From Candidatus Latescibacterota bacterium (GTDB lineage: Bacteria > Latescibacterota > UBA2968 > GCA-2709665): a stretch of DNA of 64,000 nucleotides. Shown here one piece after another: positions 53,825 through 63,310 of this stretch. Positions within the stretch are counted from its first letter, which is position 1. The number at the start of each line of letters is the position of its first letter. Made by a program: the position numbers and the translations under genes. The stretch spans positions 416,001-480,000 of the forward strand of contig CBDDDZ010000004.1 of NCBI GenBank assembly GCA_965226795.1, in the 5' to 3' direction. Below the pieces are notes generated by a model that did not search any database, had not been told where the DNA came from, and worked only from the letters and a program-made list of their open reading frames with translations.

Positions 53825-55441
53825 TTGGCTACTGCCCTCTTGGATAAGGACGCAGTCCTGCGGATGAAAACCCGGCTCGACGCGGCGGGGGTGACCAACC
53901 AGGACGCGGCGTTGCGCCAGGCGTCCGGTGAGGCCTTTTACAACGCTTCGCCCTTCAGGCTCCGCGATCTGACATCCCGCGCCAGACAGCAGCAGTTGAA
54001 GGCCGACTTCGAGGCGTATCTCGACGGGTTCTCGCCAAATGTGCTGGAAGTCCTCGAGAGGTTCAAGTTTCGCAATCAGATTCCTGAGTTGGTGGAGAAC
54101 GATTTGCTCGGGTTTCTTCTTGAGAAATTCCTTGATCCTTCGATCAAACTCAGCCCCAAACCGGTGTTGAACGCTGATGGATCCGTGCGTCTGGAGGCGC
54201 TCGACAACCACGGAATGGGCACTGTGTTCGAAGAACTGATCCGCCGTTTCAACGAGGAAAACAACGAGGAGGCCGGCGAGCACTTCACGCCTCGCGACGT
54301 CGTACAGCTCATGGCGCGGCTGATTTTCATACCGGTTGCCGACGAGGTCAAATCGGGCATATGGGAGTCCCGTTTCATCGTGGAACATGACGACGACCCG
54401 GAACACTCCCTAATTACCCGTTCCAGCGACGGACAGATGATGTTCCTGGCCAATATGCTGAGCAAGATGAAACAGGACACCCCTCTAGGCAGCCGCATCG
54501 CCGAAGTCCACAACGGCAGTTCACTCTTCACCGGAGACGCCGGACAGGGCGAGAGCAACATCCGTCGATGGATCATCGAGAACGATTGGCTCGAGGCTAT
54601 TGTCGCGCTGCCGCTCAACGTGTTCTACAACACGGGCATCGCCACCTACATCTGGGTGTTGACGAACCGCAAACCCGCGCATCGCCGGGGCAAGGTGCAA
54701 CTCATCGACGCAACGCAATGGTCCAAACCGCCACGAAAGAATCTAGGAAACAAGAACTGCGAACTTTCAGACGAGGATGTCGAGCGGATCTGCAATTCCT
54801 TTCTCACCTTCGAGGAGAACGAGCAGTCTAAGATCTTCCCCACCGACGCCTTCGGCTACTGGAAGGTCACGGTTGACCGGCCCTTACGGCTCAGCGTAGA
54901 CCTGTCGCCGGACCCTCGCGAGCGCTTCCGGACCGTCTGTTGCGATGCAAAGGAAGAGTCGCTTGCAGACGTCATCGATCGTGCGGCGGAAGCCGTAGGC
55001 GCAGGTCCTCACCGCAACTTCAACCAGTTCCTGGACGTCGTGGCAATGTACGCCCCTGAGTGCGGCGTTAAACTGACTACCGGACGAAAAAAGCTGCTTC
55101 AGACTGCCCTGGCATCCCGCGAAAAGGCCGCCGAGCCCGTCATAAAGAAAATCCATCGTCCGGGAAACGTCGAACCCGACAGCGAACTTCGCGACACCGA
55201 GCAAGTGCCTCTGCTCGAAGAAGGCGGCATCGAGAGCTTCCTGTGTCGCGAGGTGTTGCCCTACGCATCGGATGCCTGGTACGACCCCGCCAGCGTCAAG
55301 GTCGCATACGAAATCAGCTTCACGCGGTACTTCTACGAGCCGCAACCGATGCGCACACTTGAAGAAATAAGGGCCGACATTCTGGCGCGGGAACGGGAAA
55401 CCGAGGGATTGCTGGGAGAAATTCTCAGCGGGCAGAACTAA
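53825..55441 (+). pseudogene. hsdM: Type I restriction-modification methyltransferase, truncated and internally deleted
   Basis: FEELIRRFNEENNEEAGEHFTPRDVV, SSDGQ, NGSSLFTGDAGQGES, FYNTGIATY and LRDTE are present. No DxACGTGG or NPPY motif, and no normal N-terminus. Confidence 0.8.
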
Positions 55442-55944: not shown

Positions 55945-58044
55945 ATGAAAGCAACTGAGGCCAATCTACTGGCATTTCTCAGGAAATCACCTCAGTTTAA
56001 CATTCCTATATTTCAACGCACTTACTCCTGGACCGAGTCCCAATGTAGCCAGCTATGGGATGACATCTTGCGGGCTGGAGACGACGAGAATATACCTGCA
56101 CATTTCGTCGGATCCATTGTCTATATAGAAAAAGGCCTCTACCAGGTTTCCAGCCAATCGCCGCTATTGGTGATCGATGGACAACAACGCCTCACTACGG
56201 TCACACTAATTATTGAGGCGTTGGCACGACATTTGGAAGATCGCGAGCCGATCAAAGGCTTCTCAGCCAGGAAGCTTCGAAATTACTATTTGCTCAATCA
56301 AGATGAAGACGGCGATCAACGTTACAAATTGCTGCTAACTCAAACTGACGAGCAGACGCTCCTTGCGATAGTTGATCAAATAGAACTGCCCAAGCCCTGC
56401 TCCTTACGCCTCAAAGAGAATTTCCGCTTCTTCGAAACGAAGGTCAAGGACCTCGGCGAAAATGTCGTGCCGCTTTGCAATGGATTAGCGAAGCTCATAC
56501 TTGTAGACATATCGTTAAGCCGCGACCACGACAACCCACAGTTGATATTTGAGAGCATGAATTCGACCGGTCTAGAATTAAGTCAGGCAGATTTGATACG
56601 TAACTTCGTGCTAATGGGCTTGGAACGTACCGAACAGGAGAGACTCTATAAAGAATACTGGCGACCCATGGAACTCGCCTTTGGTCAAGATGCCTACAGC
56701 AGGCATTTTGATGGCTTTATGCGGCACTATTTGACCATCAAGACCGGGGACATCCCCAAGATCGGCAAGGTATACGAAGAGTTCAAATTATTCGCGAGAA
56801 GGCAGGAACACATTGGGATTGATTCACTGCTTGCAGATTTGCATAAGTTCGCTAACTATTACTGTGCGATGGCACTCGGAAACGAGGGTGAGCGGCGTCT
56901 TGCGGACGCCTTCCGCGACCTCCAGCACCTCCGAGTGGACGTTGCCTATCCGCTTCTTTTAGAACTATATGACGATTATTCTAGTTGCGAACTCTCGCTC
57001 GACGACTTCGACGAGGCCGTTCGTTATATAGAAAGCTACGTATTTCGAAGAGCTGTCTGTTCCATCCCAACCAACTCGCTCAACAAAACCTTTGCCACGT
57101 TTGGCCGCTCACTGAAAAAGGATCGATATTTGGAGAGCATGCTTGCACATTTTCAGCAGTTGCCGTCCTACCGACGGTTCCCCAATGACGACGAGTTTTC
57201 GCGTGAAATCAAGGTGCGAAACCTATACAACAATCGAACCAGCTATTGGTTGCGTAGACTTGAGAACTACGACAGGAAGGAACCCGTACCTGTCGACGAA
57301 TACACGGTGGAGCATATCTTGCCTCAGAACGAAAATCTGTCAACGGCATGGCAGGTCGCGATGGGGGACGATTGGCGAAGCGTACAAGAGAATTGGGTGC
57401 ATACGCTTGGGAATCTGACGCTCACAGGCTACAACGCTGAATACAGCGATCGACCATTTGCAGAGAAACGCGACATGAAGGGCGGATTTCGACAAAGCCC
57501 GCTTCGGCTGAATGAGGGCCTAGGCGAGTTGGATACATGGGACGAGGATGCGATCCGTGATCGCGCCGAGCGTCTGGCAAACAAGGCTGTGGAGGTTTGG
57601 AAGGGACCGTCCCTAAAGATCGAAGTTCTTCGAGACTACTCGCCTGACGCTGGCGCGGGAACAAAGAGCTATACCATAGAAGACCATCCCAACCTGCATG
57701 AGGGAAGTTCCACTCGAATTCTCTTCGAGGAATTCAGAAGGGAAGTACTCGCAATTGATCCGTGCGTCTCAGAAGAGTTTTTAAAGCTCTATGTTGCATA
57801 TAAGGCCGAGACAAACTTCGTTGATGTCGTTCCCCAGACCTCACGAATGAGATTGGCCCTGAATATGAAATTCCACGAACTGCATGACCCAAAGGGAATG
57901 GCAAATGACGTGACTAATCTTGGTCGGTGGGGCAACGGTGATGTGGAAACGATGATTTCCAGCATTGACGAACTGCCCTATGTGATGGGCCTCGTGCGTC
58001 AGGCTTTTGAAAGGCAAATGGGCGACGGCGGGACACTGGATTGA
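55945..58044 (+). CDS. GmrSD-like DUF262 + DUF1524 (HNH) + DUF5655 protein
   Basis: IPIFQRTYSW, VIDGQQRLTT, IFESMNSTG.EL..ADL, VEHILPQ...LGNLTL...N and KLYVAYK...GRWGNGD. Confidence 0.88.
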   Translation: MKATEANLLAFLRKSPQFNIPIFQRTYSWTESQCSQLWDDILRAGDDENIPAHFVGSIVYIEKGLYQVSSQSPLLVIDGQQRLTTVTLIIEALARHLEDREPIKGFSARKLRNYYLLNQDEDGDQRYKLLLTQTDEQTLLAIVDQIELPKPCSLRLKENFRFFETKVKDLGENVVPLCNGLAKLILVDISLSRDHDNPQLIFESMNSTGLELSQADLIRNFVLMGLERTEQERLYKEYWRPMELAFGQDAYSRHFDGFMRHYLTIKTGDIPKIGKVYEEFKLFARRQEHIGIDSLLADLHKFANYYCAMALGNEGERRLADAFRDLQHLRVDVAYPLLLELYDDYSSCELSLDDFDEAVRYIESYVFRRAVCSIPTNSLNKTFATFGRSLKKDRYLESMLAHFQQLPSYRRFPNDDEFSREIKVRNLYNNRTSYWLRRLENYDRKEPVPVDEYTVEHILPQNENLSTAWQVAMGDDWRSVQENWVHTLGNLTLTGYNAEYSDRPFAEKRDMKGGFRQSPLRLNEGLGELDTWDEDAIRDRAERLANKAVEVWKGPSLKIEVLRDYSPDAGAGTKSYTIEDHPNLHEGSSTRILFEEFRREVLAIDPCVSEEFLKLYVAYKAETNFVDVVPQTSRMRLALNMKFHELHDPKGMANDVTNLGRWGNGDVETMISSIDELPYVMGLVRQAFERQMGDGGTLD

Positions 58045-58408
58045 CCGCTGATCTCAATCATTACCCTCTCTTCAGACCTTCTCCGGTCACATTGTTTGTG
58101 GGTACACCCCGAGCATCGGGACGTGTGGTAGCTAAGGACGTTCCGCAAGTTGTGACCACGGAAATTGGCAATACACTCGTCGCCGTCGGCACACTCTAAG
58201 GAAACGACATCGGTGTAAACTCTGGGAATTGTAGCGCTAACGCTCACAATCGGCGTATACGTGTCCGCAGAAGAATCGAGCCGTGATCTTGATCTGTCCA
58301 CGCGCAATACAAATTTAGGCATACGGTCGTTAACCGAAGATCGGTAGAATATAGGTTACCCTGGAAGATTAGTGTAGGATTGTCAAATTGACCACAGTGA
58401 GGTCAGCA

Positions 58409-58891
58409 ATGAACCTAAGGAAATGGTTTGCAGATTTTCATTTGGATAAGGTCAAGATAGGGCCAAGCTGGGCTTCGGTCGAAATCACCTTTGAAGAGAG
58501 TGATCGAGATGCTGCTTGGGAGTTATACGTAGAGATGCTAACGAGAATTGTAACTCAGCCGTTGCCATCCGAATCAGGCGACGAAAAAACGGCTTTGGAA
58601 AGTGTGTACGCGCTTTTTGGGATTACGAGAGAAATTCTGCGCCGCCGTGGGCGCGCGACGATGCAGTTCAGCAAGATTGCAATACCTGTTCTTAACCAAA
58701 TCGTACGACCCTTTACCGCAAAGTGGCATAAGGAAAGTATCGCGGGTGCCTTTGCCTGCGAAACGAAACGAAGAGAATTTCGCAAGGAACTGGAAATCCT
58801 GCAGAGTGAATTACGAAACTATAACTCGATGTTGGCGAATATCGCAGAAGTGGAAGATCTTACTGATTTGGAACTGCAAGATCCCGAATAA
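58409..58891 (+). CDS. Conserved-looking helical hypothetical protein, first gene of the TIR operon
   Basis: 160 aa. GAGG RBS before ATG 58409. AAWELYVEMLTRIVTQPL...GDEKTAL.S...LNQIVRPFTAKWH. Confidence 0.65.
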   Translation: MNLRKWFADFHLDKVKIGPSWASVEITFEESDRDAAWELYVEMLTRIVTQPLPSESGDEKTALESVYALFGITREILRRRGRATMQFSKIAIPVLNQIVRPFTAKWHKESIAGAFACETKRREFRKELEILQSELRNYNSMLANIAEVEDLTDLELQDPE

Positions 58892-58921
58892 CAAAAAACA
58901 TGCTACGAGGGAATCGATATA

Positions 58922-59398
58922 ATGGCCGATGAAACGAAAAACGTCTTTATTAGCCACATCCACGAAGACGATGATGGTCTGGGCAAGCTGAAGAGTCTGT
59001 TGAAGGACAATGGAATGACTATTAGGGACTATTCAATAAACAAAGATAACCCGAACAATGCCCATTCGGAAAGTTACATCAAGTCGGAGATTCTTGCACC
59101 CCGTATACGGCGATCAAGTACGTTGGCCGTTTACGTCTCGCCGGAGACTAAAGATAGTCCCTGGGTAGACTGGGAAGTTGAGTATGCACATAAACATGAC
59201 AAACGCATTGTAGGTGTGTGGGCCCACGGTGAATCCGGTTGCGATGTTCCAGACGCACTGGAGAAATACGCCGACGCTATAGTTGGTTGGACGGGTAATC
59301 GCATCATCGATGCCATAAACGGAAAAATTGATGGTTGGGAAAACCCTGACGGCACAACTAGATCTCCTCGGAATATCGAGCGATATAGTTGTGGATAG
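58922..59398 (+). CDS. TIR-like protein (DUF1863/ThsB family)
   Basis: NVFISH, DYS, IL.PRIRRSS, T..SPWVDWEVEYA (catalytic Glu) and KRIVGV. Confidence 0.88.
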   Translation: MADETKNVFISHIHEDDDGLGKLKSLLKDNGMTIRDYSINKDNPNNAHSESYIKSEILAPRIRRSSTLAVYVSPETKDSPWVDWEVEYAHKHDKRIVGVWAHGESGCDVPDALEKYADAIVGWTGNRIIDAINGKIDGWENPDGTTRSPRNIERYSCG

Positions 59399-60017
59399 AA
59401 TCGAAAGTCCAAGGCTGTTCTCATATGTAGTCGCTCGCGATTACGGATTTGCGCCTAATCCTTTTTTTGGTTTCTGTACTTTAGCCACATGCAAACCCAA
59501 GATTCGACAGACAGCTTCCACAGGGGACTGGATCATAGGAACCGGTAGCAGCAAATACGGGAGACAGGGATTCCTAATTTTCGCCATGCGCGTAACCGAA
59601 ACAATGACATTTAATGAGTATTGGGACGACGACAGGTTTCGGCGGAAAAAACCAAACATGATGGGGAGCATGAAACAAGCTTTCGGCGACAACATCTACT
59701 TTAAGGATGATGTCGGTCGTTGGCACCAGGAGAATTCTCATCATAGCTATGATACCGGATTAAATAACCCTCACAATATTCGAAACGACACAAAAGCGGA
59801 CAGGGTTCTATGCAGTACAGACTACGCATTCTGGGGAGGATCTGGACCTAAAATACCCGAAGAATTCAGGAACTTTCGTGGTAAAGACATTTGTTGTCCG
59901 ATGCAGGGGCATAAATGCCGGTTTCCAGACGATCTAGTTGACCGTTTTGTCGAATGGATAAGGTCTCTAAATCAAAATGGGTATTGTGACGCACCCATAG
60001 AGTGGGGGACAGCATGA
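59391..60017 (+). CDS. Nucleotide modification associated domain 2 (Nmad2) protein
   Basis: LFSYVVARDYGFAPNPF.G.CTLATCKP.IR..A..GDW, GDNIY and VL.S..Y.FWG. The GTG start overlaps the TIR stop. Confidence 0.8.
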   Translation: MDRIESPRLFSYVVARDYGFAPNPFFGFCTLATCKPKIRQTASTGDWIIGTGSSKYGRQGFLIFAMRVTETMTFNEYWDDDRFRRKKPNMMGSMKQAFGDNIYFKDDVGRWHQENSHHSYDTGLNNPHNIRNDTKADRVLCSTDYAFWGGSGPKIPEEFRNFRGKDICCPMQGHKCRFPDDLVDRFVEWIRSLNQNGYCDAPIEWGTA

Positions 60018-61195
60018 CCATCAGACCGTCTGTGTCTACGGTGGACGAACGTGACAAGTCAAAAATAGAGACAACGATGCTTCTATCCGACTATATGCAA
60101 CAGATCGCACCCACCGATAGATTACCTCGAGACAATCTGCAACCGGTCCTAATGGGTCTTTTTGGAGAGGTTGGCAGCATCATGGCAACGGCCAAGAAGG
60201 CTCACAGGGAACAAGAGGCATATGTCGGATTCAAGCAGGCCGTGGAGGAAGAATTCGGCGACGTTTTGTGGTATTTTACGACTTTGTGTCGACGTCTTGG
60301 GACAGGAGTTGACATCATCGTTTCCGAAACGACAGATCGATCTCGATACAGCAAGGTTGTTGCCGCAAGCGATCTTTTGGATGGCCCGGTTTCTCACATT
60401 TCCTCTGTAGGTGAACTGCATGACCTTGACAAGACGCTACTGAATCTCGGAGAAGCTACGGCCGCACTTCTTGGAATCGAGAGAATGGATGAAGGCACGA
60501 GAGATTCGCTGCGCGTGTTCTCGGATTGCTATTTGCAAGCACTTCAAGCTGCCGGTGTGAGCTTTTCCAAGATAGCTCGTTTGAACATCAAGAAAGCTCG
60601 TGAGCGTTTTCTTGATCCCGATCCATCAAAATTACCAACATTCGATAGAAACTATCCCGATGAGGAGCGCCTTCCGGAGCATTTCGAGATCAAAATTATT
60701 CAACGAAAAAACGGACGAAGTTATATGCAGTGGAACGGTGTATTCATTGGCGATCCACTCACCGACAACATTACGTACCCGGACGGCTACCGATTCCATG
60801 ATGTGTTTCATCTTGCTAATGCCGCCATCCTTCACTGGTCTCCTACGTTTCGCGGCCTAATAAAGCGTAAACGCAAGAGCAACAGGAAGGTCGATGAAGC
60901 CCAGGATGGCGGCAGGGCGATCGTCGTTGAAGAAGGACTTAGTGCGTGGATATTTTCGTGCGCCAAAGATCTCGATTTTTTTTGTGATCAGAATACCGTC
61001 TCCTTTGATTTGTTGAAAACCTTGCAGCAGTTCGTTCGGGGATATGAAGTCCAAGAATGTCCGCTCAGACTTTGGGAAATGGCTATCTTGGAGGGCTACA
61101 GAGTATTTAGGCAAGTTCTGAAGAACGATGGCGGGATCGTAATTGGAGATCGTAAATCCCGTACTATAAAGTATCGTCCAATTCGTGGAGATTAG
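60014..61195 (+). CDS. MazG-like NTP pyrophosphatase fused to a MazG C-terminal domain
   Basis: MGLFGEVG...EEEFGDVLWY, then IGDPLTDN..DGYRFHDVFH..WSP..KRKRKS..DGGRA..EEG. ATGA overlap with Nmad2. Confidence 0.85.
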   Translation: MTIRPSVSTVDERDKSKIETTMLLSDYMQQIAPTDRLPRDNLQPVLMGLFGEVGSIMATAKKAHREQEAYVGFKQAVEEEFGDVLWYFTTLCRRLGTGVDIIVSETTDRSRYSKVVAASDLLDGPVSHISSVGELHDLDKTLLNLGEATAALLGIERMDEGTRDSLRVFSDCYLQALQAAGVSFSKIARLNIKKARERFLDPDPSKLPTFDRNYPDEERLPEHFEIKIIQRKNGRSYMQWNGVFIGDPLTDNITYPDGYRFHDVFHLANAAILHWSPTFRGLIKRKRKSNRKVDEAQDGGRAIVVEEGLSAWIFSCAKDLDFFCDQNTVSFDLLKTLQQFVRGYEVQECPLRLWEMAILEGYRVFRQVLKNDGGIVIGDRKSRTIKYRPIRGD

Positions 61196-61198
61196 TCC

Positions 61199-61858
61199 GT
61201 GAAACTGATCCAGTTTTTGGATGCATTGAAGAACTTGAGCTTTGAGAATACATTTAATCCTTACTCAAATCGTTGTGCAGTCCACGATTTGGACGACGCA
61301 CCAGAGCGCCGCCTAAAATTGTTGCATTCTTTGCTTGAAGTGGCAACAGTACGGGAAATAGATTCTATATGGATCGGACGTGATCTTGGCTATCGTGGCG
61401 GTAGGCGAACAGGGCTTGCCTTAACGGACGATGTGCATATAGGCGAATACGCCGCGCGATGGGGATTATCCGTTCAACGGCTAACGAAAGGCGAAATTGC
61501 TGCCGAGCGGACAGCCGCTGCTATCTGGAGCGTACTCTCACAGATTAACCTATCTGTTTTTCTATGGAATGTCTTCCCATTGCACCCGCATGAACCCGGT
61601 AATCCTTTCAGCAATCGATCTCATAACTCTATCGAACGCAGGACAGGGGAAGAGCTACTTTCTCAGCTTATTCTCCTTCTGAAACCGCACCGACTGATTG
61701 CAATCGGCAATGATGCGGCACGAACAGTGCGTCGCTTAAGCGACAACCTGGAGTTCATTCAGGTACGCCATCCCAGCTATGGCGGAAAATCACGGTTCTT
61801 AGCTCAAATGTGCGACGCGTACAATCTGCAATCAGGAATCTTTCAAGGTTCGTTATAA
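61199..61858 (+). CDS. Uracil-DNA glycosylase superfamily protein
   Basis: FNPY, IWIGRDLGYRGGRRTGLALTD, WNVFPLHPH..NR, IAIGN and RHPSYGG. Confidence 0.82.
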   Translation: MKLIQFLDALKNLSFENTFNPYSNRCAVHDLDDAPERRLKLLHSLLEVATVREIDSIWIGRDLGYRGGRRTGLALTDDVHIGEYAARWGLSVQRLTKGEIAAERTAAAIWSVLSQINLSVFLWNVFPLHPHEPGNPFSNRSHNSIERRTGEELLSQLILLLKPHRLIAIGNDAARTVRRLSDNLEFIQVRHPSYGGKSRFLAQMCDAYNLQSGIFQGSL

Positions 61859-61867
61859 TCAACTCCG

Positions 61868-63310
61868 TTGACTCCTTCTCAGAAGTTGCGAAGAGGAATA
61901 TTGGGGCTATTGGTGCATTCAAATCATAAATCCTACCCCACCTACATTCCCTCCGGCGTCGATTGGCTGGGCGATATGCCGGCGCATTGGAGGCAATTGC
62001 CAGGCAGAGCCTGTTATCATGAGAAGAAAGTGCCAAATACTGGTTTGCGAACAACTACCGTGCTTTCTTTGAGCTACGGCAAAATTGTAGTCAAACCCGT
62101 TGAGCAACTTCACGGGTTGATCCCTTCATCTTTCGAAACATACCAAGTAGTTGAACTAGGGGATATAGTCATCCGACCGACGGATTTACAGAATGACTGG
62201 AATAGCCTTCGTTTTGGCTTGAGTCGTTATCATGGAATCATTACTTCGGCCTACATGTGCTTCCGCACAAGAGGAATATTGTCGCGGGAATATGGGCACC
62301 TGCTACTCCATGCCTATGACCTCAAGAAAGTATTCTATGGCTTAGGATCTGGACTTCGGCAGAACCTGGATTGGAGCGATTTTAAGTACCTGCCTTGCCT
62401 TGTCCCACCCCTCCCCGAACAGACGGCCATCGTACGCTACCTCCACCACATCGACGATCGCATCCGTCGCTACGTCATCGGGAAGCAGAAACTCATCCAG
62501 CTGCTGGAGAAAGAGAAGCGGGCCGTTATCAACCGCGCCGTCACTCAAGGCCTCGACCCCACCGTTCGCCTGAAGCCTTCGGGTCTTGAGTGGCTGGGCG
62601 ACATCCCGGGACATTGGGCGGTGCGGCGCATACGAAACGCGGTCGAAATGAGGGTTAGTAACGTTGACAAACATATCAACGATAACGAATTGCCCATCCG
62701 TCTTTGCAATTACGTTGACGTCTATAGGAATGACCGAATCACCGAGAGCGTGACGTTTATGAGAGCTACAGCTACTGCGGATGAAATCGACCGCTTCCGA
62801 CTGGAACAGGGAGACGTTCTGATAACAAAAGACTCGGAAGTATGGAATGACATCGGCGTACCCGCATTAGTCGAATACACGGCAGCGGACTTGGTCTGCG
62901 GTTATCACCTGGCACTCTTGCGACCCCTGCGCGGGTTGCTCAATGGCGCATATCTCTGTCGGGCATTGCAGACACCGGCCGTGACGTACCAATTTCATAC
63001 AGGGGCAAATGGGGTAACTCGCTATGGCCTGTCACACCACGCGATAAAGTCGGCACTCTTACCCCTACCACCCGTCATTGAACAAATCGCTATTGTGCGC
63101 TATCTCGACAAGTCGATCGCCGACATCGATACCGCAATCAGCCGTGCTCGCCACCAAATTGAGTTTGTACAGGAATACCGTACTCGTCTCATCGCCGACG
63201 TGGTGACGGGCAAGCTGGACGTGCGTGGTGACGGGCAAGCTGGACGTGCGTGGGGCGGCGGCAAAGCTGCCAGACGAAGGGGGGGACACCGGAGGCGCTG
63301 GGCACCGTGA
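61868..63310 (+). CDS. hsdS: Type I restriction-modification specificity subunit
   Basis: SGVDWLGDMP.HW and SGLEWLGDIP.HW repeats, PPL.EQ.AIV.YL twice, EYRTRLIADVVTGKLDVR. The true start is uncertain (61868-61913). Confidence 0.9.
   Translation: MTPSQKLRRGILGLLVHSNHKSYPTYIPSGVDWLGDMPAHWRQLPGRACYHEKKVPNTGLRTTTVLSLSYGKIVVKPVEQLHGLIPSSFETYQVVELGDIVIRPTDLQNDWNSLRFGLSRYHGIITSAYMCFRTRGILSREYGHLLLHAYDLKKVFYGLGSGLRQNLDWSDFKYLPCLVPPLPEQTAIVRYLHHIDDRIRRYVIGKQKLIQLLEKEKRAVINRAVTQGLDPTVRLKPSGLEWLGDIPGHWAVRRIRNAVEMRVSNVDKHINDNELPIRLCNYVDVYRNDRITESVTFMRATATADEIDRFRLEQGDVLITKDSEVWNDIGVPALVEYTAADLVCGYHLALLRPLRGLLNGAYLCRALQTPAVTYQFHTGANGVTRYGLSHHAIKSALLPLPPVIEQIAIVRYLDKSIADIDTAISRARHQIEFVQEYRTRLIADVVTGKLDVRGDGQAGRAWGGGKAARRRGGHRRRWAP
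63199..63253. repeat. 25 bp tandem duplication in the hsdS 3' end
   Basis: CGTGGTGACGGGCAAGCTGGACGTG occurs twice, followed by CGTGG. Confidence 0.9.

Follow-up and report, generated by a model that had tools for sequence, protein, structure and literature searches.

A TIR-Nmad2 cassette in a decayed type I restriction locus of a Candidatus Latescibacterota bacterium: a candidate modular anti-phage system of Thoeris type

The available part of the DefensePredictor article highlights predicted, unvalidated systems carrying MazG, MazG-C, NMAD and UDG domains (PMC13092281, Fig. 6F) and reports the validation of DS-4 (NTTI) of E. coli, among whose five genes no effector of the kinds discussed below (orfA or SLOG) is named there and whose defence was weak, with one row, lambda, at about 8.6-fold and smaller plaques. 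Among Thoeris systems, type VI pairs ThsB with ThsG/DUF6650, a homo-hexameric effector, and uses 2'cADPR as signal, and type III, as summarised in the same partly available preprint, consists of several TIRs with a SLOG effector (bioRxiv 10.64898/2025.12.03.692087). In PUA-Cal-HAD, according to the accessible portion of its description, a PUA-like sensor has m6-dAMP as ligand and dNTP depletion as output (bioRxiv 10.64898/2026.01.15.699771). The words Nmad and MazG are absent from the main text of the Thoeris preprint as available, Nmad from that of the PUA-Cal-HAD preprint, and MazG, Nmad and glycosylase from the available text of PMC11350192; the literature on Nmad and phage yielded as relevant the DefensePredictor work and an Asgard-virus preprint. 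The novelty that a sequence-only reading had claimed for the present locus holds in so far as no experimental work on its gene combination was found in the literature, but the type had been predicted by DefensePredictor and the core pair is present in DS-4, as far as that source extends.

The locus lies in a window of 64,000 nucleotides, the whole stretch of DNA that was analysed, and comprises five co-oriented ORFs on the forward strand (58409-61858). All five are genuine, undamaged genes kept by purifying selection: third codon positions hold most of the mismatches to three relatives in all of them, and gene 1 is conserved on a par with the others. All coordinates of these tightly coupled genes were reproduced, together with their spacings (genes 1 and 2 lie 30 bp apart, genes 2 and 3 overlap by 8 bp, genes 3 and 4 by an ATGA, and 3 bp separate genes 4 and 5), and so was their AT-richness, with a GC of 0.46-0.48 against 0.58 for the genome; low GC is common to the whole island (0.495 for the GmrSD gene, 0.50-0.54 for downstream DNA). 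Run X1, perhaps the sample from which the sequence came, contains a contig of 3443 nt identical to positions 57969-61411, and short exact pieces of the locus were also present in three runs from another study. No RNA dataset occurs among the listed holders of the locus sequence, and promoter and terminator scans of the locus remained at chance level. NCBIfam names none of the five genes. The domain names used here reportedly stem from papers of the Aravind laboratory of 2013 and 2015, which are likely to contain an earlier prediction of the operon.

The cassette sits in a variable island within a dead type I restriction locus. The decay of hsdM, already noticed in the first reading, was confirmed in the remnant (53825..55441, forward strand), which has suffered an in-frame loss of about 100 residues with motif I and NPPY and also lacks its N-terminus; only remnants of hsdR are found, about 11 kb downstream. 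On the other side, hsdS (61868..63310, forward strand) shows 54% identity over 444 of 448 residues of a relative and has an altered 3' tail. The cargo of the hsdM-hsdS slot differs among relatives, the insertion site is empty in four of them, and Nmad2 is patchily distributed (6 of 168 genomes of the phylum, 1 of 14 other genomes of the genus). The GmrSD + DUF5655 gene (55945..58044, forward strand) is separate cargo in the same slot; its membership in the cassette was considered and rejected, since the two are not conserved together.

On both sequence and modelling grounds, the TIR and Nmad2 proteins appear to be the core of the cassette. The TIR (58922..59398; 158 aa) matches Pfam ThsB_TIR at 9e-23 and is named ThsB by PADLOC (4e-65), which leaves the other four genes unnamed. 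Its catalytic Glu85 is kept in 88 of 90 Nmad2-adjacent TIRs, the C-terminal Cys157 is invariant in 48 aligned sequences, and a quick tree places the protein in an Nmad2-linked TIR group. Gene-neighbourhood conservation, proposed as a check, was borne out: in 82 of 92 loci the gene immediately preceding Nmad2 is a TIR. Fusions found in nature include TIR-Nmad2 and Nmad2-TIR-TIR, and Nmad2 is also joined to a NOV_C domain and to MazG. Nmad2 itself (59391..60017; 208 aa, GTG start; Pfam match 1e-68) was modelled with pLDDT 96 and is predicted to adopt a PUA/YTH/EVE/ASCH-like fold, YTH, EVE and ASCH-type domains being the top-ranked rows of two fold searches (best Z 7.7, rmsd 3.8 over 138 aligned residues; best Foldseek E 0.011), where a Z below 8 stands for likeness of fold and not of function. 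It is also a predicted TIR binder: the model of the TIR-Nmad2 complex scored 0.86 against 0.00 for the best of three controls and passed a mark that 116 of 157 solved pairs and 2 of 215 mismatched pairs attained, with contact agreement between runs of at least 91% and partner pLDDT of at least 92. A phage collection gave no Nmad2 match. On a viral contig (L101), Nmad2 adjoins a TS-like gene and a DNA polymerase.

Gene 1, or orfA (58409..58891), encodes a helical-bundle protein of 160 aa without a Pfam family (a single match fell below the cut-off), and a PDB fold search with its model (pLDDT 89) returned generic helical bundles and no clear match (best Z 8.3). We found 2954 homologues, which stand alone, carry a membrane helix or are fused to patatin; 22 of 27 loci picked by orfA have a TIR within 2.6 kb, mostly without Nmad2, and seven minimal two-gene TIR+orfA pairs were seen. 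Beside Nmad2-type TIRs, orfA occurs at scattered tree positions (12 changes for 16 rows). In the quick tree, the TIR group of this locus does not include the TIRs of those two-gene pairs, and therefore orfA may not read the signal of this TIR. Gene 1 is nevertheless probably, judging from context and weak homology, the missing effector of the system, a candidate TIR-signal receptor in a ThsG-like form without membrane helix. The earlier statement that no ThsA-type effector is present thus needs qualification: none of the effectors of Thoeris types I-III (SIR2-SLOG, Macro-TM, SLOG) is found among the five genes, but gene 1 is itself a candidate.

The orfA family weakly resembles ThsG/DUF6650 in sequence without being a member of it. 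None of 66 orfA proteins matches PF20355 at E up to 10, and one DUF6650 sequence searched against the orfA profile gave no match; the Atlas feature score is 0.85, with 189 of 256 features in common, and hhalign placed 116-117 columns collinearly (P 0.013-0.016, probability only 3%) in a weak profile match that includes an invariant Arg and Ser common to both families. Shuffle controls scored as high in 0, 1 and 4 of 60 trials, the four coming from coarse block shuffles. With a TIR profile, the retrieved DUF6650 loci showed no TIR inside a distance of about 2 kb; they may represent a subfamily other than the tested ThsG. One DUF6650 record has annotated neighbours of SEFIR and nucleotide-binding type.

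The fourth gene (60014..61195; 393 aa) encodes a MazG-like N-terminal domain followed by MazG_C, with Pfam E values of only 0.074 for MazG and 1e-79 for MazG_C. The former domain most resembles DCTPP1/RS21-C6 and a MazG structure of Vibrio type (E 2e-6 to 1e-5). MazG/DCTPP1 pyrophosphatases use four acidic metal ligands (ExxE...ExxD), of which E52, E80 and D83 are kept here, in the register given by alignments, and Ser55 takes the second position. Because this second Glu is missing from all 38 aligned family members, the role of pool-depleting enzyme assigned to MazG in the sequence-only reading is doubtful. The MazG_C part has an invariant DxYRxHDxxH...E and gave no usable Atlas match and no PDB sequence match. 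The last gene (61199..61858; 219 aa) encodes a UDG-superfamily protein whose Pfam match (9e-6; 26.3 bits) lies just above the cut-off of 24.3; its GRDLGYRGG and HPS motifs are invariant or nearly so (HPS invariant in 32), and the PDB offered only weak matches, at E 0.4, to UDGs other than the SMUG1-like subfamily.

The survey of related loci suggests that the cassette is made of three swappable modules; of the sequence-only interpretation, kept gene order, defence-type context and a nucleotide theme are supported, but one fixed five-gene system is not. A candidate effector lies within 6 kb in every one of the 31 TIR-Nmad2 loci flanked by 3 kb or more on each side: SLOG cluster 2 by itself (17), orfA by itself (6), the two together (3), a small membrane protein without family name alone (3) or SLOG cluster 3 (2), in classes that were defined from the same loci counted and with related loci not being independent. 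SLOG genes counted alone occur in 22 of the 31, and none of seven TIR-less Nmad2 loci has a candidate effector. MazG is near TIR-Nmad2 in 23 of the 31, across phyla, and the seven loci found with MazG all carry Nmad2. In 72 MazG loci UDG was present in 40, HMUDK_hel in 15, both in none and neither in 17, which indicates mutual exclusion. The enzymes encoded alongside in the surveyed loci centre on pyrimidines (thymidylate synthase-like, thymidylate kinase, dCTP deaminase, HMUDK_hel), and three loci (L071, L115, L116) have TIR-Nmad2 without any of them. No HMUDK_hel was found in the present genome.

Compared with the MazG/MazG-C/NMAD/UDG type of DefensePredictor the domains are alike, and the available part of that article offers neither a mechanism nor a modular analysis or an effector assignment (PMC13092281). 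DS-4 likewise ends in a TIR and Nmad2 pair, its TIR showing by eye the N-terminal motif, catalytic Glu and terminal Cys of ours, but on the same partial source thymidylate synthase-like, dNMP kinase and HMUDK_hel genes replace MazG and UDG, and there is no orfA-type gene (PMC13092281). DS-4-like TS/HMUDK_hel arrangements also occur among the surveyed loci. As in type VI Thoeris, whose preprint was partly available, a ThsB TIR adjoins a small helical partner, with or without membrane helices, and the orfA family could be among the 29 putative effectors in its Table S1/Fig. 1C (bioRxiv 10.64898/2025.12.03.692087); orfA lies, however, outside PF20355, and Nmad2, MazG and UDG are added. The surveyed loci recall type III Thoeris in that SLOG cluster 2 is present in 20 of the 31, mostly together with additional TIR genes, whereas the genome studied here has no match to the cluster 2 or 3 SLOG profiles and only one TIR of this type. 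PUA-Cal-HAD, as far as its text was accessible, is similar in that a PUA-like domain senses a modified mononucleotide, the role proposed here for Nmad2, and its PUA fusions span varied effectors including TIR, with rare MazG versions; unlike it, the cassette has no calcineurin-like or HAD gene (bioRxiv 10.64898/2026.01.15.699771).

Our best reading, held with slightly less than even confidence, is that the cassette is a modular anti-phage system of Thoeris type whose activity is controlled by a modified pyrimidine nucleotide. As the complex model suggests, Nmad2 and TIR would form a heterodimer in which the C-terminal tail of the TIR lies across a conserved Nmad2 face of Cys34, His118 and Asp133. 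From its fold, Nmad2 would bind a modified nucleotide that appears when a phage infects, most likely a deoxyuridine or deoxycytidine derivative substituted at position 5, and ligand binding would turn on the TIR, which by family and its kept Glu85 may convert NAD+ into an ADP-ribose-derived signal. Context and weak homology point to gene 1 as the receiver, a putative ThsG-like helical oligomer that would arrest the cell, a slot that a SLOG protein or small membrane protein may fill in other genomes. The least sure step concerns MazG/MazG_C and the UDG-like enzyme, which may be ancillary and set the ligand supply, either freeing the ligand from phage nucleotides or DNA or holding it low in uninfected cells. 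More tentatively, it is tempting to speculate that TIR-Nmad2 is a new Thoeris sensor, a TIR clamped through its C-terminal Cys to a PUA-fold reader, possibly by way of a metal or thiol site shared with Nmad2 Cys34/His118, triggered by a modified pyrimidine nucleotide and not by a phage protein, and feeding interchangeable effectors, with the orfA family providing a signal-receptor domain that works alone, membrane-anchored or on a patatin lipase.

The same signalling arm could be served by a different source of ligand, if the ancillary enzymes made or installed a modified pyrimidine in host DNA or in the pool and TIR-Nmad2 fired once phage enzymes released, converted or removed it. Synthesis-type genes (thymidylate synthase-like, dNMP kinase, HMUDK_hel, methyltransferase, radical SAM) do accompany TIR-Nmad2 in DS-4, L062, L086, L095, L122 and L138, and the accessible text on PUA-Cal-HAD provides a precedent in a PUA domain sensing host-derived m6-dAMP (bioRxiv 10.64898/2026.01.15.699771). 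We consider this unlikely, given that, unless MazG_C counts as one, the present locus lacks a synthesis gene and that L071, L115 and L116 manage without the enzymes. As a trigger, m6A from the host type I methylase was rejected, the local methyltransferase being dead; with hsdM/hsdS near only 9 of the 31 TIR-Nmad2 loci, a host restriction-modification mark is an unlikely signal.

It is similarly improbable that the TIR is itself the effector, acting by NAD+ depletion or as a nucleotide N-glycosidase after Nmad2 binds its ligand, with MazG and UDG attacking modified nucleotides or DNA and gene 1 left over from another Thoeris pair, a view close to that of the sequence-only reading. HHpred annotated the DS-4 TIR as an NDT/CMP hydrolase (PMC13092281, in part), PUA-TIR fusions are read as NAD+-targeting effectors (bioRxiv 10.64898/2026.01.15.699771, in part), orfA is joined in the two-gene pairs by TIRs from other groups, and cassettes with a Glu-less TIR (L094, L099) retain MazG and/or UDG; direct action leaves unexplained, however, the effector present in every well-flanked TIR-Nmad2 locus and in none of the TIR-less ones, the scattered placement of orfA beside Nmad2-type TIRs and the equal conservation of gene 1. 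Lower still we rate the chance that TIR-Nmad2, with or without its effector, and MazG+UDG are independent systems stacked in a common insertion hotspot. Relatives indeed hold other cargo between hsdM and hsdS, and MazG with UDG or HMUDK_hel shifts position and strand relative to TIR-Nmad2 (L043, L070, L100), but a Nmad2-MazG-MazG_C fusion exists and the association of MazG with TIR-Nmad2 and Nmad2 counted above speaks against mere stacking. MazG and UDG folds belong to repair and sanitation, yet a housekeeping function of this kind instead of defence is very improbable for genes with a patchy, mobile distribution, an insertion site empty in relatives and TIR, SLOG and restriction-modification genes as neighbours.

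If the preferred reading is true, modified-nucleotide sensing by PUA-fold domains and TIR second-messenger signalling would be united in one small complex, and functions would be gained for Nmad2, MazG_C and the large unnamed orfA protein family. It would also suggest how DS-4 works and what may trigger type III-like Thoeris loci, a new TIR product might emerge, and a clear prediction would follow as to which phages are blocked.

The five-gene cassette is real. Re-analysis of the window sequence reproduced the open reading frames, spacings and domains proposed in the sequence-only reading, all on the forward strand: gene 1 (orfA, 58409..58891), a TIR gene (58922..59398), Nmad2 (59391..60017, with GTG as start codon at 59391), MazG/MazG_C (60014..61195) and a UDG-like gene (61199..61858). 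As also proposed there, the five genes are intact, their differences from three relatives falling mainly at third codon positions, and the neighbouring hsdM (53825..55441) is decayed, with about 100 residues including both catalytic motifs missing and hsdR reduced to remnants. The claimed AT-richness of the cassette stands in part: GC content is 0.58 genome-wide and falls to 0.46-0.48 in these genes, yet low GC spans the whole island and not the cassette alone. The sequence here is reproduced in public contigs; among them, a second study contributes short pieces that match exactly. At its 3' end (63200-63310), hsdS (61868..63310) has an atypical tail and a short duplicated stretch, and contigs from three runs diverge there, at 63225; the following gene (63397 to 66468) encodes a 1023-aa protein whose N-terminus holds an Mrr-like nuclease domain (weak Pfam match; PADLOC LmuA, 2e-6), and a relative has part of this gene in the corresponding site.

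The RM/defence island spans about 20 kb (window 53330 to about 73750; G000:C4:469330-489750 in the genome of the window) and is absent from 4 of 10 other same-genus genomes compared, and in the remaining ones the site holds different cargo, one having the same five genes. In that genome the flanks are about 91% identical at the nucleotide level and the cassette 78%. The gap between hsdM and hsdS is a cargo slot; the cassette is mobile and, very probably, defensive. The GmrSD + DUF5655 gene (55945..58044) was rejected as a cassette member. Nmad2 is present in 6 of 168 genomes of its own phylum and in 6 of the 401 genomes sampled from another; orfA occurs in six of the same 401, none being those with Nmad2.

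Mapping of 102 loci picked by Nmad2 (80 being the best of 588 metagenome matches, plus 12 viral and 10 from genomes) placed a TIR gene immediately before Nmad2 in 82 of the 92 loci that extend at least 300 nt upstream of it. Among the 72 MazG-bearing loci, 40 have UDG alone and 15 have HMUDK_hel alone, none has both and 17 have neither, many of these last being short contigs; thymidylate synthase-like, thymidylate kinase, dCTP deaminase and radical SAM genes are further recurrent neighbours. Given the upstream TIR, the mutual exclusion of UDG and HMUDK_hel and these pyrimidine enzymes, the operon comprises three parts: a TIR-Nmad2 core, a slot for an effector and a module of pyrimidine enzymes. 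The MazG domain most resembles DCTPP1/RS21-C6, which prefer 5-modified dCTP, and its second Glu is missing in 38 of 38 aligned sequences; in MazG_C the DxYRxHDxxH motif and Glu307 are invariant, a pattern that may recall a zinc-hydrolase site. From the company these genes keep, we infer that the substrate shared by the enzyme module is a 5-modified uracil or cytosine. Two loci pair a TIR-less Nmad2 with Nmad3 (L118:9729-11239, L119:8846-10278), and Leu replaces Cys29 in most TIR-less Nmad2 proteins (6 of 8, against 2 of 100). A viral contig joins a TS-like gene, a deaminase, Nmad2 and DNA polymerase A (L101:5552-10388), an arrangement that may be a phage gene cluster for base modification employing Nmad2.

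The fold model of Nmad2 (pLDDT 96) has YTH, EVE, ASCH and McrB-N domains as top matches (best Z 7.7, rmsd 3.8, 138 aligned), and these scores are middling yet consistent, naming no ligand. Fusions among 16 long Nmad2 proteins scanned join it to TIRs (three), NOV_C (one) and MazG-MazG_C (one). In the TIR, Glu85 is retained in 88 of 90 sequences and Cys157 in 48 of 48. The TIR+Nmad2 complex model scored 0.86, the best control 0.00; the mark for this score was reached by 116 of 157 solved pairs and 2 of 215 mismatched pairs. The model runs had at least 91% of contacts in common, with partner pLDDT of at least 92. The modelled interface brings TIR 146-158 together with Nmad2 33-35, 117-121 and 132-133, including conserved Cys, His and Asp, which would suit a metal or thiol site common to both proteins; a Cys157-Cys34 contact is absent from the 25 interface pairs listed. 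The model supports, rather than demonstrates, binding between TIR and Nmad2. Two cassettes (L094, L099) carry a TIR lacking the catalytic Glu, with no effector found in their available sequence, where the upstream flank is short. In L008, a locus selected through MazG, the TIR is divergent, a calcineurin-like gene is present and none of the four effector classes occurs.

Every TIR-Nmad2 locus flanked by 3 kb or more on each side (31 of 31, or 30 loci once one near-duplicate is removed) has a candidate effector within 6 kb (SLOG cluster 2 or 3, orfA or a small membrane protein), the effector classes having been drawn from these same loci, whose kin are not independent; known SLOG genes alone account for 22 of the 31, and none of seven equally flanked TIR-less Nmad2 loci has a candidate effector. 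The small membrane protein (L003:6376-6813, L095:6989-7486, L115:7849-8370) has no Pfam name. Gene 1 is the only candidate effector found in the genome of the window. A quick tree cuts both ways on that role: the Nmad2-linked TIRs that adjoin orfA are scattered over the tree (12 changes for 16 rows), which counts for it, whereas the TIRs of two-gene TIR+orfA pairs group apart from those linked to Nmad2, which counts against it.

The orfA family has 2954 homologues and received no family name in domain and family searches; its model is a helical bundle, for which fold searches returned no specific match. Selection by orfA gave 27 loci (15 from genomes, 4 viral and 8 of 11 plasmid hits, leaving out five own-phylum Nmad2 loci already counted). 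A TIR gene lies within 2.6 kb in 22 of them (by Pfam or custom profile, one by record annotation); only 3 carry Nmad2, and 7 are bare TIR+orfA pairs. The domain occurs by itself, after a membrane helix or as a patatin fusion; fusions of the last kind beside TIR genes (L081:2-2569, L086:9880-12531, L136:6875-9463; P0391-P0395) are good candidates for an enzymatic signal read-out. The same hsdM-hsdS slot in a same-genus genome (L173:5746-6848, G053) holds an orfA homologue and a TIR belonging to another group and lacks Nmad2, making it a candidate minimal two-gene system. Such pairs also occur on viral contigs (L163:4360-5465, L164:4390-5483), one directly before terminase genes, and on Streptomyces plasmids (L139:4800-6134, L140:4155-8338) orfA is flanked by a TIR/beta-propeller gene on one side and a NUDIX hydrolase on the other.

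The only named look-alike of orfA in the Atlas was DUF6650 (score 0.85, a lead), described as ThsG, the type VI Thoeris effector, which occurs with or without membrane helices (bioRxiv 10.64898/2025.12.03.692087), as does the orfA family. Profile comparison with 15 DUF6650 proteins was collinear over 116-117 columns, with an invariant Arg and Ser aligned, at a weak probability of 3%; shuffles scored as high in 0, 1 and 4 of 60. Possibly, orfA works like ThsG.

A literature search found no experimental paper on this operon, in line with what had been claimed. The text of DefensePredictor (PMC13092281) highlights predicted systems with these domains, which it states to be unvalidated, and reports DS-4 as validated, with a single weak hit on record; the main text of the Thoeris preprint (bioRxiv 10.64898/2025.12.03.692087) contains neither Nmad nor MazG, and the PUA-Cal-HAD preprint (bioRxiv 10.64898/2026.01.15.699771) offers a precedent for nucleotide sensing. 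A Thoeris-type signalling arm probably operates here, whether its ligand is a modified nucleotide that arises during infection or one that the cassette's own enzymes make. The best mechanism, in which TIR-Nmad2 is gated by a modified pyrimidine nucleotide and gene 1 acts as effector, we place a little under an even chance, and the further proposal that TIR-Nmad2 is a new kind of Thoeris sensor, switched by such a nucleotide, with orfA as an unnamed signal-receptor domain, seems rather doubtful. The operon is a variant, itself new, of an already known kind of defence.
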